Below, piece by piece: positions 4,133-11,930 of a DNA stretch of 11,930 nt. The notes under the pieces are model-generated. The model was not told where the DNA came from and did no database searches. It saw only the letters and a list, made by a program, of their open reading frames with translations. How positions within the stretch are numbered: position 1 is the stretch's first letter; every line of letters starts with the position of its first letter. The translations under genes were made by a program, and so were the position numbers. Origin of the DNA: Blastocatellia bacterium (GTDB lineage: Bacteria > Acidobacteriota > Blastocatellia > UBA7656); contig DASTET010001092.1 in assembly GCA_035709445.1 (NCBI GenBank), positions 1-11,930 on the forward strand. Direction: 5' to 3'.

Positions 4133-4137
4133 AAACA

Positions 4138-4254
4138 GGAAGCCAGAAGTCAGAAGCCAGAAGTCCGTCGTTAAAGATTCTGATTTCATTCACCCCGCAG
4201 CAATCGAGAGACTGCGCGAGAGATTCCGGCTTCTGACTTCTGGCTTCTGGCTTC
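4138..4254. repeat. 117-nt inverted repeat. Arms of 27 nt are built from tandem heptamers GAAGCCA/GAAGTCA; the loop is 62 nt; A5 and T5 runs flank it. Probable bidirectional intrinsic terminator after the SCO1/CusF gene.
   Basis: Left arm 4139-4165 (gaagccagaagtcagaagccagaagtc). Right arm 4228-4254 (ggcttctgacttctggcttctggcttc). In full register the arms pair with two G.U and one C.A mismatch; a 7-nt register shift gives 20 perfect bp. Upstream aaaaa (4131-4135) and downstream ttttt (4255-4259). Confidence 0.6.
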
Positions 4255-4400
4255 TTTTTACAATACTTTACTTCTGGTCCCGGGAGGGGCGTGATAATCT
4301 TGATCGGCCAGGCTCCACGCGGCGGGCGGAACTTCAGCCTTTTTGCCGCGTGAGAGCCCTTTAAGGCGCGAGGAAATCAGACAATTACGGGAGAGACAGG

Positions 4401-5642
4401 ATGAAGTTGAGATATCTGTTTTCCATTTTGCTCTCGCTTGCGCTCGTGCAGGTATCTGCGGGTCGGTCGGCCCGCGATTACGACTGGCCGCAGTGGAGAG
4501 GCGCGGACCGAACGGGTCTATCGAGAGATACCGGGCTGCTGAAATCGTGGCCCGCCGAAGGCCCGTCTGTCGTCTGGACGATCTCGAATCTTGGCGAAGG
4601 CTACGGCTCAGTCGCAATCCAGGGCAATTATATATTCGTACAGGGGGCGAAGGGGAGCGAGAGCGTCGTATTCTGCCTGAACCGCGCCGACGGCAAGACC
4701 ATCTGGACGCAGGCGCTCGGCCCCCGTCTCGACCAGGACCGTGGAGGCGGCCCGCGCGGCACGCCCACCGTTGACGGCGATAGGGTCTATGTGCTCACGG
4801 AAAACGGCGACCTGGCCTGTCTTAAAGCCAGGGACGGGGCGGTCGTCTGGCGTAAGAACATCATGAAAGATTTCGGTGGCCGCAACATCACCTGGCTCAT
4901 AAGCGAGTCGCCGCTAATCGATGGGAACAACCTGATAGTCACTCCCGGCGGAGAAGGAGCGGCGATAGTCGCGCTCGACAAGATGAGCGGAAAGACCGTC
5001 TGGACGAGCAAAGAGCTGAGCGACCCTGCCGGGTATTCATCATGCCTGGTCGCCGATGTGGGCGGGGTGCGCACGATAATGGGATTTACGGCGAGGGCCG
5101 CCGTCGGTCTTCGCGCCACGGACGGAAAGCTTATGTGGCGTTATGAGCCCGTATCCAACCGCACGGCCAATTGCACGACCCCCGTCTATCATGACAACAA
5201 GGTCTTCTACACATCGGCCTACGGGACGGGCTGCGCCCTGCTCGGTCTCAAACCGGAAGGCGGAGAGGTCCGCGCCCAGGAGGTCTATTTCAGCAAAGAC
5301 ATGATGAACCATCACGGCGGCGTGGTGCTGATCAACGGATACCTCTACGGCTTCTCAAACGCGATACTCACCTGCATAGAGTTCAACACGGGCAAAGTCA
5401 TGTGGAAAGACCGCAGCGTGGGGAAGGGCTCGCTCACCTATGCCGACGGCCACCTTTACCTGCTCGGCGAGAACAACACGGTCGGGCTGGCCGAAGCCAC
5501 GCCCGAAGGCTACAGGGAGAAGGGCAGGTTTAAGATCGCCGACCAGGGCTGGCCAAGCTGGGCGCACCCGGTCGTCGCAGGCGGAAGGTTCTATATACGG
5601 AACCAGGGCATGCTCACCTGCTACAACGTGAAAGCGAAATGA
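4401..5642 (+). CDS. Secreted PQQ-like beta-propeller repeat protein (BamB/PQQ-enzyme-repeat family)
   Basis: 413 aa. Signal peptide MKLRYLFSILLSLALVQVSA. DWPQWRGADRTG motif typical of PQQ-repeat propellers. Recurring (V/I)Y-x-x-(D/N)G...L-x-A-x-D-x-x-x-G-x-x-x-W blades. Confidence 0.85.
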   Translation: MKLRYLFSILLSLALVQVSAGRSARDYDWPQWRGADRTGLSRDTGLLKSWPAEGPSVVWTISNLGEGYGSVAIQGNYIFVQGAKGSESVVFCLNRADGKTIWTQALGPRLDQDRGGGPRGTPTVDGDRVYVLTENGDLACLKARDGAVVWRKNIMKDFGGRNITWLISESPLIDGNNLIVTPGGEGAAIVALDKMSGKTVWTSKELSDPAGYSSCLVADVGGVRTIMGFTARAAVGLRATDGKLMWRYEPVSNRTANCTTPVYHDNKVFYTSAYGTGCALLGLKPEGGEVRAQEVYFSKDMMNHHGGVVLINGYLYGFSNAILTCIEFNTGKVMWKDRSVGKGSLTYADGHLYLLGENNTVGLAEATPEGYREKGRFKIADQGWPSWAHPVVAGGRFYIRNQGMLTCYNVKAK

Positions 5643-5649
5643 GATCTGA

Positions 5650-5692
5650 GACAGGATTAACAGGTCTTTTTGTACGACCTGTTAATCCTGTC
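5650..5692. terminator. Perfect 17-bp palindrome (GACAGGATTAACAGGTC, 9-nt loop tttttgtac) at the junction of convergent genes. Candidate bidirectional terminator or protein-binding palindrome.
   Basis: Left arm 5650-5666; right arm 5676-5692, an exact reverse complement. The right arm contains the last three codons and the TAA stop (5682-5684) of the minus-strand 157-aa gene. No clean U-tract follows on either strand. Confidence 0.5.
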
Positions 5693-6155
5693 CGATGACG
5701 CTGTACTCGACCGACCCGTCCTTCAGCGAATCCGCAAAGTACAATTCGACGCGCCTGCCTGAGAAGCGCTCCAGGAGCGCCTTTCGCGCCCTCTTCAGGT
5801 TCGCGATCTGCTTCTGATTGAACTCCGGCTCGGTGAAAAAGTACTGCACACTCTCTTTGAAGAAGAGACAGTCGTCGTGCCCTACGAGCACGATCTCGGG
5901 CGACCGGGTGCGCTTGAGAAGAAAAGAGAGCGATTGCAGGTTGACCTTGAAGAACTTGGGCATCAAGTGCTCGAGCGTGACGAAGTGGCCGCCGCCCGGC
6001 ACGGCTTGCAGCGCGTAAGACGACAGGCGCAGCCCTTCGGTCAGGAACTCGTGAAACCCGGCCTGAAACCGGTGATCGCTGCAATGGATGACCACCGCCT
6101 CCGAGGTCGCGTCTTCCAGTCTGGCCTTTGATATGTAGATGGTCGGGGCTTTCAT
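5682..6155 (-). CDS. Small soluble hypothetical protein with a beta-carbonic-anhydrase-like metal-ligand pattern (C25-x-D27-x-R29 ... H93-x-x-C96); last gene of the NfeD-flotillin operon
   Basis: 157 aa, high GC3, no TM segment. VVIHCSDHRF resembles the beta-CA motif (...CSDSRV) and IVLVGHDDCLFF resembles the beta-CA motif (...VxGHxxCG), with 68-residue spacing (beta-CA about 56). An overlapping alternative-frame ORF (5614-6198) is Arg-rich and was rejected. Confidence 0.7.
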   Translation of the reverse strand: MKAPTIYISKARLEDATSEAVVIHCSDHRFQAGFHEFLTEGLRLSSYALQAVPGGGHFVTLEHLMPKFFKVNLQSLSFLLKRTRSPEIVLVGHDDCLFFKESVQYFFTEPEFNQKQIANLKRARKALLERFSGRRVELYFADSLKDGSVEYSVIGQD

Positions 6156-6174
6156 CGTCTCTAAAAATATTCAA

Positions 6175-6233
6175 CCGCAGAGGAGCGCAGAGGATCAATA
6201 ATGATCAAAATAACCTCTGCGCCCTCTGCGCCC
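6175..6233. repeat. Intra-operon inverted repeat between the flotillin gene and the small downstream gene. Arms are built from GCAGAGG units; the loop is 20 nt and AT-rich.
   Basis: Left arm ccgcagagg-a-gcgcagagg (6175-6193) pairs with cctctgcgccctctgcgg... (6214-6231), giving 17 bp with one bulged A. Loop atcaataatgatcaaaataa. On the minus-strand transcript the stem is followed by uugaauauuuuua and then the start codon of the 157-aa gene. Confidence 0.5.
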
Positions 6234-6261
6234 TTTGCGGTGATTAACTCCGACTCTTACA

Positions 6262-8622: not shown

Positions 8623-9540
8623 CTATTTCGAGGGGTCGGGCCGGGGTTTGAGGCTTTCGATGAAGTCGCGGTCTTTCGTCCCGGCGTGGCAGACTATGCA
8701 GGACTGCTGGCCGCGCTCTTCGAGGTCCGACACGAGCCCATAGGTCAGGCCGCGATCCGACCAGGTGATGACCTTTAGCCCCTCGATGGTTTCGTAATGA
8801 AAGGTGAGTCCCTTCGAGGCGATCTCTTCTCCGCCGCGCGGCGTGGCCACCCGGTCCGAGGTGACTACGAGCGTGATCGGACGGCCCTGCATCTGATAGG
8901 CGATATAAGCCGCATAATCATTCTTGAATCCGACCAGCCGCGCGCCTTCGATCTCGTAGAGCTTCTCCTGCCCGGATGTCTTCTGGTAATCCGGCAGCAC
9001 TAAACTGAACGAGACCTTTCCCGCAAACCAGCGCGACACCTCGTCGGGCGACCCGGAAGTGATCTCGAACGGGAGCTGGCCGCGCAGGTGGCGGAGGTGA
9101 GTATCGACGGCCATTATCGCAAACTCTGAGGTAAGCGAGGGCGGCGCGAGCGCAGGACGCCGCGCCGCGTACCAGAGCGCCGCTGCGATGATGAAGACGG
9201 CAACGGTGGCGAGCGCGAAGACCCGTCGGCCTTTCAGACTGAAGGGGGCGGCGGTCTTCCATAAAGACTTCTGCACGCGAGTCCGCAATTCGGGCGGAGC
9301 GGCATACACGGGCGGCGCATCGCTCAGCACACGCTCGGACTTCGCGCGAAGCTCGGGAGGCGCGGTATAAATCGGACGGGCCCGGCGTATGCTCTCGATG
9401 AACTGCCGCTCATCAGATACCATCTGCTCGCACGAACGGCATTCGGCCAGGTGCGCTTCGAATCGGGCGAGGTCCGAGCCGCTCAACTCGTCGTCGAGAT
9501 AGAAGGCTATCCGAGAGCGTATGTCGTCACAATAATTCAT
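8623..9540 (-). CDS. Transmembrane ZAS-type (zinc-finger HC2) anti-sigma factor with a periplasmic C-terminal domain ending in a CxxCH haem-c binding motif
   Basis: Start chosen at ATG 9540 (MNYCDD...). It forms an ATGA overlap with the stop codon of the upstream ECF sigma gene. ZAS signature C...H-x3-C-x2-C (FEAHLAECRSCEQ). Single TM helix (VFALATVAVFIIAAALWYAA). About 165-aa periplasmic domain. CIVCH is encoded at 8686-8700. The six-frame ORF extends to 9654, but the upstream extension is Arg/Gly-rich and lacks an RBS. Confidence 0.8.
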   Translation of the reverse strand: MNYCDDIRSRIAFYLDDELSGSDLARFEAHLAECRSCEQMVSDERQFIESIRRARPIYTAPPELRAKSERVLSDAPPVYAAPPELRTRVQKSLWKTAAPFSLKGRRVFALATVAVFIIAAALWYAARRPALAPPSLTSEFAIMAVDTHLRHLRGQLPFEITSGSPDEVSRWFAGKVSFSLVLPDYQKTSGQEKLYEIEGARLVGFKNDYAAYIAYQMQGRPITLVVTSDRVATPRGGEEIASKGLTFHYETIEGLKVITWSDRGLTYGLVSDLEERGQQSCIVCHAGTKDRDFIESLKPRPDPSK

Positions 9541-10109
9541 GCTTCTTTGGCCCGCATCGGTTTTCCCGCCGCTTCGGCCTGCCACTGACTGAGCAGCGAT
9601 CTCAGTTTTTCTCGCGCCCGTCCGAGCCGCGACATGACGGTCCCGGCGGGGCATCCCAGGATTCCGGAAATCTGCTGATAGCTGAAGCCTTCAAGGTCCC
9701 TGAGCACGATCACTTCGCGGTACAGCCGGGGAAGGCTTTCAATGGCGGCCCTTACCTCTTCGCGCTCTATCTTTCTAACAAAGACCGTATAAGGGTTGCT
9801 TGCAAGGCTGTCGAGCCATTCAGCGCGGCCCTCTTCTTCCTCATCCAGCTCGACAAATCGCGGGCCGCTACGCGCGTGGCGGAGCTGGTTGAGCCAGATA
9901 TTTCGGCAGATGGCAAACAGCCAGCCTTTCAGATTGCTGTCAGGCATGAGCTGACCGAAGGCCCTCACGGCCCGCAGATAGGTCTCCTGCACAAGGTCTT
10001 GAGCTTCGGCCTCATTGCGCGCAAGCGCCATGGCGTATCCGTACAGCGCATCGATATGCTCGATTGCCGCCTGGCGAAAGTCCACGCTGTCGCCTTTATT
10101 CTCGCTCAT
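9537..10109 (-). CDS. ECF (group IV) RNA polymerase sigma-70 factor
   Basis: Region 2 (DLVQETYLRAVRAF...WLFAICRNIWLNQLRH) and region 4 (REVIVLRDLEGFSYQQISGILGCPAGTVMSRLGRAR) are present. Start chosen at ATG 10109 (MSENKGD...), giving 190 aa, typical for ECF factors. The longer ORF to 10214 adds a hydrophobic non-homologous extension. The stop overlaps the anti-sigma start (ATGA). Confidence 0.85.
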   Translation of the reverse strand: MSENKGDSVDFRQAAIEHIDALYGYAMALARNEAEAQDLVQETYLRAVRAFGQLMPDSNLKGWLFAICRNIWLNQLRHARSGPRFVELDEEEEGRAEWLDSLASNPYTVFVRKIEREEVRAAIESLPRLYREVIVLRDLEGFSYQQISGILGCPAGTVMSRLGRAREKLRSLLSQWQAEAAGKPMRAKEA

Positions 10110-10206
10110 GATGAGCCCTGCGCCGTTGTAAAGGGCGCATAATAATAACACATGACCTCTTAAATTATTCCCTCCGCGCCCGAATAAATTCACCGGCGTG
10201 AGTGCC

Positions 10207-10233
10207 GTCACCATTCGAGGTGACTCGTGTCAC
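10207..10233. promoter_or_regulatory. Overlapping palindromes GTCACC-N6-GGTGAC and GTGAC-N4-GTCAC in the divergent sigma/CCP intergenic region. Candidate operator.
   Basis: gtcaccattcgaggtgactcgtgtcac read directly from the sequence. About 100 nt upstream of the ECF sigma start and about 145 nt upstream of the CCP start. Confidence 0.3.
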
Positions 10234-10375: not shown

Positions 10376-11533
10376 ATGAAAAACAGACTACGCAATATAA
10401 AGCTGCTGCTGATTGCTGCGGCGACTGTTTTTGTCGTCATAAATCTTCTTCCCGTCACGGGGGTCGCCCAGAAAGAGAAATACAAGCCGGACCTGCCCCC
10501 GGCAATCCCGGCTGATCTATGGGAGATGCTCATCCCCGAAGACAATCCCATGACCGAAGCCAAGATCGCTTTAGGACGCGACCTCTATTTCGACAAGCGT
10601 CTTTCAGTAGATAACACCGTGAGCTGCGCGACCTGCCACGATCCGAAGACCGCTTTCGCAGAATCGAAGATCGTCGCCGAAGGGATAGGCGGCAAGAAGG
10701 GCGCGCGCAACTCTCCCACGGTCCTCAATGCGATGTTCAACGTCGAGCAGTTCTGGGATGGCCGCGCAAAAACGCTCGAAGAACAGGCCAAGGGGCCGCT
10801 CACGAACCCCTTAGAGATGGGCATGCCCTCGCACGACGCGGTCGTCGATCGGGTAAAACAGGCGCCCGACTATGTGAAGCGGTTCCAGGAGGTGTTCGGC
10901 GGCCCGGTCACCATCGACAACATTGCCAAGGCTATAGCCTCTTTCGAGCGCACGCAGCTTTCCGGCGATTCTCCGTTCGACCGTTTCAACGCTGGCGATA
11001 AGTCCGCCATAAGCGCCGAAGCCCAGCGCGGGTTCGAGATATTCAAGGGCAAGGGCCGCTGTATAACCTGTCACGAGTTCAACGCCTCTTCGCCTTTCTT
11101 CACTGACTTCAAGTACCACAATGTCGGCGTCGGAATGAAAGCGACGAAGAACTTCGAATCGCTCGCCCGGCAGGTCCAGCAGATGGCTCAGCAGCAGCAG
11201 CTCACCGCCGAATCTTTGGACCAGCTTTCGCTCAGCGAAGGGTTCTCCGAGCTTGGCAGGTTCCTCGTCACGCGCGAGCCGAAAGACGTAGGAGCATTCA
11301 AGACGCCTCCGCTACGCGACATAGAGCTGACCGCTCCTTATATGCACGACGGCAGCCAGAAGACGCTGCGCGAGGTCATAGACTTTTACAACAAAGGGGG
11401 CGAGCCGAACCCCAATCTCGACGGCGGGATTCGCAAGCTCGATCTCACAGACCAGGAGATAAGCGACCTGGAAGCGTTCCTGAAATCATTGACCAGTGAT
11501 CGCGTTCGCAAACTAGTGTCTGGCGAGTCGTAA
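10376..11533 (+). CDS. ccp: Di-haem cytochrome c peroxidase (CCP/MauG family), secreted
   Basis: Signal peptide MKNRLRNIKLLLIAAATVFVVINLL. Two CxxCH motifs (CATCHDP, CITCHEF). Family signature TAPYMHDGS. Conserved FWDGRA and PLTNPLEMG segments. A Gln-rich insert (QVQQMAQQQQLTAESLDQLS) lies between the haem domains. Confidence 0.9.
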   Translation: MKNRLRNIKLLLIAAATVFVVINLLPVTGVAQKEKYKPDLPPAIPADLWEMLIPEDNPMTEAKIALGRDLYFDKRLSVDNTVSCATCHDPKTAFAESKIVAEGIGGKKGARNSPTVLNAMFNVEQFWDGRAKTLEEQAKGPLTNPLEMGMPSHDAVVDRVKQAPDYVKRFQEVFGGPVTIDNIAKAIASFERTQLSGDSPFDRFNAGDKSAISAEAQRGFEIFKGKGRCITCHEFNASSPFFTDFKYHNVGVGMKATKNFESLARQVQQMAQQQQLTAESLDQLSLSEGFSELGRFLVTREPKDVGAFKTPPLRDIELTAPYMHDGSQKTLREVIDFYNKGGEPNPNLDGGIRKLDLTDQEISDLEAFLKSLTSDRVRKLVSGES

Positions 11534-11542
11534 ACAGTCCAG

Positions 11543-11666
11543 CGAGTCTGGCGAGTCGCGAGTCTGGCGAGTCGCTTTCGAGACAGACACCGCTTTAAAC
11601 AGGTGTTGCAAAGTAATCAGCGCCGCGAGGAGCGGGACTCGCTAGACTCGCGACTCGCCAGACTCG
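11543..11666. repeat. 124-nt inverted repeat with 31-nt arms built from tandem GCGAGTC(TG) units and a 62-nt loop. The unit series begins inside the 3' end of the CCP gene.
   Basis: Left arm 11543-11573 (cgagtctggcgagtcgcgagtctggcgagtc). Right arm 11636-11666 (gactcgctagactcgcgactcgccagactcg). This gives 31 bp with a single G.U. An additional copy of tctggcgagtcg at 11519-11530 encodes the CCP C-terminus ...SGES immediately before the TAA stop. No flanking T-tracts. Confidence 0.6.
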
Positions 11667-11691
11667 TTAGACTCATTATGGAGATGAACTT

Positions 11692-11930
11692 ATGTGGCCA
11701 TTAAAATGGAAAAAAAGAGAACAGCAGTATCAGGCCGAACGAGCCGAGTTCTTCGATGCGGTCAAACGGCTTGATAGGCGGTCGTTTCTGAAGGTGGCGG
11801 GCATGTCAGCGGCCGTGGCCGCTGCGCACACGACGTTTCCACCTCACTCGTTTCAGCTCGTAGATGTCGTTTCGGCCCAGACTATGGAGAAGCCGCACTT
11901 CAGGTTCGCCTATATCTCGGACTCGCACCT
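11692..11930 (+). CDS. Tat-secreted metallophosphoesterase (calcineurin-like), 5' partial (runs off the window end)
   Basis: GGAG lies 9 nt upstream of ATG 11692. Twin-arginine motif LDRRSFLKVAG with an Ala-rich h-region. The first metallophosphoesterase motif (FAYISDSHL, a D-x-H type) lies right at the window end. Confidence 0.6.
   Translation, partial: MWPLKWKKREQQYQAERAEFFDAVKRLDRRSFLKVAGMSAAVAAAHTTFPPHSFQLVDVVSAQTMEKPHFRFAYISDSH

Follow-up and report, generated by a model that had tools for sequence, protein, structure and literature searches.

What kind of element is a hairpin whose arms are themselves built of short tandem units, and what could it do between two genes of one operon? 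The question is raised by element B, which lies between the genes for a di-haem cytochrome c peroxidase (CCP) and a Tat-signal metallophosphoesterase on a contig of 11,930 nt from a Blastocatellia (Acidobacteriota) metagenome-assembled genome (MAG). The whole contig is referred to here as the window, and its CCP matches a named Blastocatellia MAG protein. We have examined the anatomy of element B and compared it with other hairpins in the window and at related loci (designated by L numbers). On the basis of this comparison, element B very probably belongs to a Blastocatellia class of intercistronic foldback elements with mirror-image tandem-unit arms. The best explanation overall appears to be a foldback akin to the short tandemly repeated repetitive (STRR) sequences that preserves or enforces translational coupling, an explanation for which we consider the probabilities evenly balanced.

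Anatomy of element B and its operon setting

Element B was resolved by a repeat finder into two arms of 43 nt each that are 88% complementary, lie 62 nt apart and contain a perfect 17-nt core (coordinates of all features are shown in Table 1). In its inner 31 bp (11543-11573 / 11636-11666) a single pair, the G.T at 11566, departs from Watson-Crick pairing, and the fold of positions 11500-11700 reached -104.2 kcal/mol, compared with -67.0 +/- 4.5 kcal/mol for 200 dinucleotide shuffles (z -8.4; 0/200 as good). Resampling the window 100 times under a Markov model gave best inverted-repeat scores of 10.9 +/- 1.0 (maximum 15), compared with 29 for the actual sequence. Each arm consists of tandem copies of a 16-nt period (9 + 7, GCGAGTCTG followed by GCGAGTC), of which 2.1 copies at 100% are present in the left arm and 1.9 copies at 93% in the right arm. 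The 13-mer GTCTGGCGAGTCG occurs at 11518, within the coding sequence, and again at 11546 and 11562, and its reverse complement at 11651. The element starts with the CCP stop codon (TAA, 11531-11533) and stops 2 nt short of the Shine-Dalgarno sequence belonging to the downstream gene, 13 nt before the ATG; the GGAG is retained and has an anti-Shine-Dalgarno duplex energy of -6.4 kcal/mol.

No T-run was present 3' of the right arm, and no terminator-like site was found on the + strand. Thus, two claims of the original prediction, made from the sequence of this stretch, agreed with the present analysis: that of a 31-bp inverted repeat with a single G.U pair and that of a repeat which is not a canonical terminator. 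Known structures gave no better fit. A canonical intrinsic terminator was rejected on account of the 43-bp stem, the 62-nt loop and the missing T-run, and an Rfam scan of the whole window on both strands (E <= 1) returned no match. An integron attC site was also considered, as GTTAGAC at 11666-11672 fits GTTRRRY, but was dropped, since the element is flanked by genes of a conserved core operon and no inverse core is present in the left arm.

The gene order CCP-metallophosphoesterase-SoxA/TsdA-type cytochrome c was kept in relatives, the second gene being identified by a TAT_signal match in the window and by PF00149 in an orthologue. The distance from the CCP stop to the next start was 158 nt in the window, 36 nt in L211 and 5 nt in L016 and L017, where the Shine-Dalgarno site lies inside the CCP end. 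Because of the short distances in L211 and L016/L017, the two genes are taken to form an operon and the gap in the window to be intercistronic. The sole promoter-like match in the element was weak and overlapped the metallophosphoesterase start codon. An earlier assignment of the hairpin to a 5' leader or promoter region of that gene is therefore contradicted by the close spacing in L016/L017, the conserved gene order and the position of this match.

Two side observations concern the locus as a whole. First, a divergent pair of genes for an extracytoplasmic function (ECF) sigma factor and a zf-HC2 anti-sigma factor is located upstream of the CCP operon (window 8623-10214 and 10376-11533); L008, L010 and L215 share this arrangement, pointing to ECF control of the CCP operon. 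Second, seven independent Logan contigs with identical CCP (L001-L007) all end 27-37 nt past the stop codon, inside the left arm. Repeat-unit hairpins break short-read assemblies at k=31, and for this reason they are probably under-represented in MAGs.

Table 1 Features of the window, arrays at related loci and units at the orthologous CCP-metallophosphoesterase gap
Sequence	Feature	Position	Strand	Details
Window	CCP gene, 385 aa	10376..11533	+	Open reading frame (ORF); Pfam CCP_MauG 6.6e-60
Window	Arm unit GTCTGGCGAGTCG inside the CCP coding sequence	11518..11530	+	Codons V-S-G-E-S; no right-arm partner
Window	Element B, left arm	11531..11573	+	TAA stop is the first three bases; units degenerate AGTCCAGCG, GCGAGTCTG, GCGAGTC, GCGAGTCTG, GCGAGTC
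Window	Element B, 62-nt loop	11574..11635	+	
Window	Element B, right arm	11636..11678	+	Units GACTCGCTA, GACTCGC, GACTCGCCA, GACTCGTTA, GACTCATTA; order mirrors left arm
Window	Shine-Dalgarno GGAG (11680-11683) and ATG (11692-11694) of Tat-signal metallophosphoesterase	11680..11694	+	Sequence; TAT_signal match
Window	Sibling A, CAGAAGY heptamer arms	4133..4270	+	Directly after SCO1/CusF gene stop
Window	Sibling C, 17-bp perfect stem of ACAGGATTA units	5650..5692	.	Between convergent genes; minus-strand gene stop inside right arm
Window	Sibling D, arms of CGCAGAGGA(G) / CCTCTGCGC units	6174..6247	-	Between two minus-strand genes
L218	CAGTGGT hairpins	12732-12819, 16429-16510, 19132-19212, 21150-21204, 6027-6114		
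L094	ispD-ispF gap array	8999-9087		
L219	ispD-ispF gap array	14434-14564		
L220	ispD-ispF gap array	14120-14198		
L218	ispD-ispF gap array	13550-13593		
Window	Orthologous gap units			GCGAGTC(TG)
L216	Orthologous gap units			GCGAGTCYG (CCP 90% identical)
L217	Orthologous gap units			GAGAGTC(TW) (CCP 86% identical)
L008, L215	Orthologous gap units			CAGTGGY
L010, L011	Orthologous gap units			CAGTTTT
L012	Orthologous gap units			TCCTTTG paired with CGAATGA/CAAATGA
L013	Orthologous gap units			AGACAAG-like
L015	Orthologous gap units			TTTCAAA, direct repeats only

A class of repeat-unit hairpins in Blastocatellia

Hairpins of this kind were abundant. A uniform scan gave a density of 13.7 inverted repeats with repeat-unit arms per 100 kb for Blastocatellia-type loci (40 in 292 kb) and of 0.19 per 100 kb for other phyla (2 in 1,053 kb). 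Of the 53 inverted repeats in Blastocatellia whose arms measured 18 nt or more, 40 were of this type. The units are 7-10 nt long, with a period of 7 in most relatives, and often have an RGTC or CAGT core. Four hairpins with four unit types are present in the 11.9 kb of the window alone. Sibling A shows a strict period of 7 (arms 4134-4163 / 4230-4259, loop 61-66 nt by register) and is followed on its 3' side by a T-run, CTTCTTTTTAC. Sibling D has no counterpart in L008, where the orthologous gap measures 21 nt (L008 3862-3882) and the CCP is 89% identical; the alignment of D with this empty site was too poor to reveal the origin of D.

Loop lengths in the class range from 4 to ~176 nt, with a mode near 60 nt (9/25 elements at 56-68 nt, most others at 5-27 nt). 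A comparison of 20 loops revealed no common motif beyond chance (TCGAGA, found in 4/20, was not sustained) and none that would explain the ~60-nt mode, and the two 62-nt loops of the window aligned no better than shuffled sequence. The loop of element B had been reported to match that of a second element, our sibling A, in length. The match in length holds; given the wide range of lengths and the missing motif, equal loop lengths mark a common class, not a common core.

One genome tends to reuse one unit type, as in the Pyrinomonadaceae contig L218, in which CAGTGGT/ACCACTG hairpins with unrelated loops occur at five loci within 21 kb. L094, assigned to Pyrinomonadaceae by RadA similarity, carries about seven unrelated unit types in 13.5 kb. 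GCGAGTCTR hairpins fill the ispD-ispF gap of L094 and were also found in L157 and L160. A metagenome scan for three GCGAGTC units yielded at least 120 contigs, but most of these arrays were coding repeats in ORFs of high-GC DNA, so that the raw matches are uninformative on copy number; clear hairpins of GCGAGTC 9-nt units were present in three of the contigs (L094, L157, L160), and related hairpins in several others.

Additional arrays were noted during this survey, and heptamer arrays appeared sporadic in other phyla. An isolated case outside Blastocatellia is L038 (Planctomycetes, 4440-4524), in which arrays of AGGGACT... and CCCTGAC... start 4 nt past the end of the CCP match. Inverted GAGTGGA arrays lie ~180 nt apart in L056 (14523-14762), and the Stieleria chromosome L081 (2933-3082) has long direct heptamer arrays (TTAGCTG x5, TTTCAAG x11). 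The DnaB genes of L218 (1274-3892) and L220 (2648-5266) contain an intein with a LAGLIDADG endonuclease domain, and that of L219 is intein-free.

Unit turnover at orthologous sites and the end of the CCP gene

All CCP-metallophosphoesterase gaps longer than ~50 nt (52-188 nt) were filled with arrays from the stop codon to the ribosome-binding site, the units varying by locus. In the window and its sister L217, both arms follow the same 9-9-7-9 unit pattern, with GCGAGTC/GACTCGC in the former and GAGAGTC/GACTCTC in the latter: every left unit of L217 has A for C and its right units have T for G, the outermost right unit still being GACTCGC. This difference is a concerted, compensatory change. 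In L008 the order of the variant units in one arm is the mirror image of that in the other, and the right arm has one or two additional copies. The loops diverge like neutral DNA (window compared with L217 and L008), and the 62-nt loop of element B is not conserved in L217, whose loop is ~57 nt long. The ispD-ispF gap represents a second orthologous site at which the units change (GCGAGTCTR, CAGTAGT and GGAGTCT; CTGACTT as direct repeats only).

To measure arm conservation, the window was compared with L008, using 4-fold degenerate sites from three flanking genes and counting the positions of element A by hand on the alignment. The arms and 3' flank of element A were ~95% identical (77/81 positions), as compared with ~45% for its loop and 60% for 4-fold sites. 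The arms of element C were identical in the two genomes, and its loop differed by a 21-nt indel. The arms appear to be under selection, because inter-arm copying alone cannot keep sequences constant between species.

The arrays also reach into the CCP coding region. After ...RKL, the tails of close relatives differ (VSGES, VE, INEQ, KSSS and QSRKS), and in the window AGTC/TGTC recurs every 7-9 nt from the V codon through the stop into the left arm. The L217 tail, Q-S-R-K-S-stop, has the same length and phase and aligns codon by codon with that of the window, L216 ends as V-E-stop at an earlier TGA followed by in-frame AAG TCT GGC GAG, and the heptamer phase extends to the last CCP codons in L008, L010 and L012 as well. 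In L011 (11099-11218) loss of the CCP stop extends the ORF by 21 codons into the CAGTTTT array (..QFSVFSFQ..); the repeat array has thus been turned into annotated protein sequence. Because the array phase runs through the last codons and the stop, the CCP tail appears to be written in repeat units, the outermost left units forming the end of the gene. This agrees with the original prediction, in which the first unit begins inside the CCP coding region and encodes VSGES before TAA, as the 13-mer at 11518 and the phase through the stop confirm. The alignment of CCP orthologues proposed there as a check gave a divided answer: tails that differ and carry the unit phase were found in close relatives, but distant orthologues end in ...RRLVSGEEK or VSGDEK without GCGAGTC units and encode the serine by AGC, as compared with TCT in the window. 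VSGE may therefore be ancestral and may have been the seed of the unit; alternatively, the repeat unit may have overwritten the CCP tail.

These comparisons bear on two other explanations. A mobile non-autonomous element, such as a miniature inverted-repeat transposable element (MITE), a foldback or something like a REPIN (a hairpin formed by repetitive extragenic palindromic, REP, sequences), could have been moved by a transposase and inserted 3' of CCP, remodelling its end. Unit types that recur at unrelated loci, also of separate genomes (GCGAGTCTR in three contigs, CAGTGGT at the five L218 loci), and the variable presence of elements at some sites are consistent with mobility. However, no target-site duplication was seen at the copies inspected by eye (A, B and the L218-L220 copies), the flanks of element B being ..GAGTCG|TAAAC.. 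and ..CATTA|TGGAG.., and no transposase was seen in any locus examined. Loops are unrelated even among copies whose arms match, and throughout the class the orthologous site contains units related through gradual, concerted change. We consider such a mobile element very unlikely, and the proposal that a discrete repeat element had been inserted at the end of CCP was not upheld.

The strict 7-nt periodicity and the recurring RGTC and CAGT cores would also suit arrays of DNA or RNA binding sites, each unit being read by one heptad-reading protein (ribbon-helix-helix, cold-shock or S1-type) that regulates transcription or translation. On heptamer repeats, each unit is bound by one CspB molecule, and S1, Csp and CsrA have been put forward as candidates for the TAACTGA repeats (PMC4679880). 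Nevertheless, the many unrelated units within the single contig L094 fit this explanation poorly, and arm pairing has been kept through unit changes, which binding sites would not need. Among the explanations considered, we regard this one as extremely unlikely.

Placement between stop and start codons and loss of Shine-Dalgarno sites

We then analyzed how the elements are placed relative to genes, considering gaps of at least 25 nt at seven loci with gene calls. It should be noted that the gaps were classified by hand and that all starts except that of ispF, which was checked by eye, were automatic gene calls, which tempers the support that the following numbers lend to translational coupling. 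Of the co-directional gaps, 28 of 59 contained an element, compared with 2/13 of the convergent and 1/13 of the divergent gaps (Fisher p 0.011). In 24/26 cases the left arm started between -19 and +9 nt from the upstream stop, and in 19/26 the right arm ended 0-16 nt before the downstream start. A Shine-Dalgarno-like motif was found at 5 of 22 element-adjacent starts, as compared with 51 of 92 other starts (p 0.008), and the corresponding anti-Shine-Dalgarno duplex energies were -1.7 and -5.4 kcal/mol (p 8e-5). In four Pyrinomonadaceae contigs, ispF (N-terminus MFRI...) starts directly past the right arm or array without a Shine-Dalgarno site.

Proposed origin and function

Any model has to accommodate the features observed here, namely the anatomy, abundance, persistence at one site, concerted compensatory turnover, arm constraint, stop-to-start placement and Shine-Dalgarno loss. 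With respect to origin, we infer that replication slippage grows and alters the arrays and that a change in one arm is transferred to its partner by template switching across the hairpin; slippage and inter-arm copying together would therefore make the units evolve in concert. The arrays would spread outward until they meet constrained sequence. With respect to function, the element would fold away on the polycistronic mRNA, such that the upstream stop and the downstream initiation region meet at the base of the stem. A terminating ribosome opens roughly 12-15 nt ahead of itself by its helicase activity. A ribosome terminating at the CCP stop would accordingly melt the outer 12-15 bp and free the initiation region, and the coupling of genes that originally abutted (the 5-nt ancestor) would thus be preserved or enforced across the 158-nt spacer. 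As a secondary effect, the element might also act as a 3' decay barrier for the CCP segment. For element B itself, a translational-coupling function of this type, proposed from sequence, is a tentative possibility. A broader version, in which heptamer-array stop-to-start foldbacks have replaced Shine-Dalgarno initiation at many operon-internal genes of Blastocatellia, with obligatory coupling and a start released upon upstream termination, seems somewhat unlikely.

Several further observations weigh against coupling. With a good Shine-Dalgarno site retained just outside its stem, element B may be able to do without coupling. Not all elements separate co-directional genes: some are found between convergent genes and one (L218 6027-6114) in a divergent gap. 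Among 21 elements, sense folding was stronger in 11 and antisense folding in 10 (Wilcoxon p 0.86), and G.U and A.C mismatches on the + strand, counted by hand in 25 listed elements, were about equal (~13 and 17); because sense and antisense fold equally and the mismatches are balanced, there is no sign of selection at the RNA rather than the DNA level. Loops of ~60 nt are superfluous to the model, and local slippage alone leaves unexplained why one unit type turns up in several genomes and at unrelated loci.

Some of these points favor a functionless by-product at the DNA level, in which slippage-prone arrays and template switching produce and homogenise perfect palindromes that are tolerated where damage is smallest, after stops and inside operons, and expand to constrained sequence. 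The missing sense/antisense asymmetry would be expected of such a by-product, as would right-arm copy numbers that differ between close relatives (2.5 units in L010, 5 in L011), arrays that overrun the ends of coding sequences (up to the lost stop of L011), the presence of element D in the window and not in L008, and the neutral evolution of loops. However, unbiased inter-arm copying would not yield the ~95% conservation of the A and C arms, as compared with 60% at 4-fold sites. Moreover, essential downstream genes have lost their Shine-Dalgarno site beside elements, and the element context must therefore at least support initiation. On balance, we consider a functionless by-product fairly improbable.

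The element might also act at the level of mRNA, as a decay barrier, an RNase III processing site or a partial terminator that sets unequal levels of CCP and the downstream products, like REP or processing operons. A very stable stem lies directly 3' of the stop codon, and perfect duplexes of 31 bp or more are typically cut by RNase III. A T-run comes after sibling A, comparable stem-loops have been described in operons (PMC4423207, PMC8219983), and REP-containing mRNAs are acted on by RNase R and PNPase (PMC12320835). On the other hand, element B has no T-run after it, no strand asymmetry could be observed, and a barrier leaves unexplained why right arms reach start codons and why Shine-Dalgarno motifs are missing there. 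A primary role of this kind is in our opinion clearly unlikely, and translational coupling remains the preferred reading.

Comparison with known systems

The closest resemblance was to the STRR sequences of cyanobacteria. For the hairpins that 7-bp STRR repeats form between hupS and hupL, a role in transcript stability or translational coupling has been suggested (PMC2670836), and a Nostoc heptamer, ttgtcagttgtcagttgtca, is present in 44 copies (PMC2408588). The Blastocatellia hairpins share with them tandem 7-nt units, an intergenic position and hairpins between co-transcribed genes and may share their dispersal over many loci of a genome in a few unit families, and the Nostoc unit is identical to that of the array at L010 15353. 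They differ in their host, a lineage of Acidobacteriota, and in that element B mixes 7- and 9-nt units with a GCGAGTC core. Paired inverted arrays, loops of up to ~60 nt or more, flush stop-to-start placement and Shine-Dalgarno loss were measured in the Blastocatellia hairpins, and we know of no description of these features for STRR. STRR sequences were reportedly defined in (heterocystous) cyanobacteria by Mazel et al. in 1990, with the units CCCCAGT, TTGGTCA and CAACAGT. Element B is STRR-like, but both its host and its units place it outside that first definition; units with a CAGT core are common in its relatives.

A second relative is the TAACTGA heptamer, whose direct repeats in Beggiatoaceae, some cyanobacteria and Bacteroidetes end a few nucleotides before starts that mostly lack canonical ribosome-binding sites (MacGregor 2015, PMC4679880). 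Right arms of the relatives have nearly the same unit (AAACTGA in L220 and L010). The TAACTGA repeats are almost all direct, with one inverted set reported, whereas in Blastocatellia an inverted array at the upstream stop pairs with the array at the start codon. A start-proximal array without a canonical ribosome-binding site, as is typical of the TAACTGA repeats, was found at 17/22 element-adjacent starts, but not at element B.

Resemblance to other hairpins was less close. REPs and REPINs are extragenic palindromic repeats, mostly located at 3' ends or inside operons, with roles in mRNA stabilisation (PMC3733652, PMC2817692), and REPINs likewise consist of two inverted repeats around a spacer and fold into a hairpin. 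REPs, however, are single imperfect palindromes of 20-40 nt with GTAG/CGTC heads, many near-identical copies and a link to RAYT (REP-associated tyrosine transposase) genes, whereas the Blastocatellia arms are tandem arrays that are not self-palindromic, lack a conserved tetranucleotide head and show many unit types and unrelated loops. No RAYT was found among the called genes of the loci examined, the source organism being covered by a single 11.9-kb contig. The stem-loops of selective RNA processing and stabilisation also lie just after a cistron inside an operon and are stable (PMC4423207, PMC8219983), but they are short ordinary hairpins without tandem units that neither abut the next start nor replace a Shine-Dalgarno site. 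MITEs and foldback transposons (for example, Correia elements) are similarly short and non-coding, with long terminal inverted repeats and a hairpin fold. In eukaryotic foldback elements the arms are themselves tandem repeats. The Blastocatellia hairpins differ from MITEs in having no target duplication, no conserved internal sequence and no parent transposon.

No description of these hairpins was found in the literature searched for Acidobacteria, Blastocatellia, Pyrinomonas and Chloracidobacterium. The sequence type is already known; what appears to be new is the paired stop-to-start architecture, together with its abundance in Blastocatellia and the accompanying loss of Shine-Dalgarno sites. 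STRR heptamer repeats have been known since 1990 and, to our knowledge, still have no accepted function. The present locus and its relatives bring in a second phylum with a very high abundance of such repeats, and they add a clear anatomy of mirror arrays that directly adjoin the stop on the upstream side and the start on the downstream side. They also add evidence in the form of arm constraint, concerted compensatory unit change and a measurable correlate, the loss of Shine-Dalgarno sites next to elements. In practice, short-read assemblies break at these hairpins, C-termini and stop codons are annotated differently because of them, and in MAGs they are easily mistaken for mobile elements or terminators. 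As a single locus, element B is an ordinary member of its class, and it is the class that offers a testable handle on an old open question; together with its relatives, the locus gives a loosely framed idea the form of a model of translational coupling that can be tested. If the model is true, slippage and inter-arm copying would build and maintain a regulatory RNA structure and rewrite protein C-termini, and the logic of obligatory coupling would give a function to the STRR sequences of cyanobacteria and the TAACTGA repeats of Beggiatoaceae.

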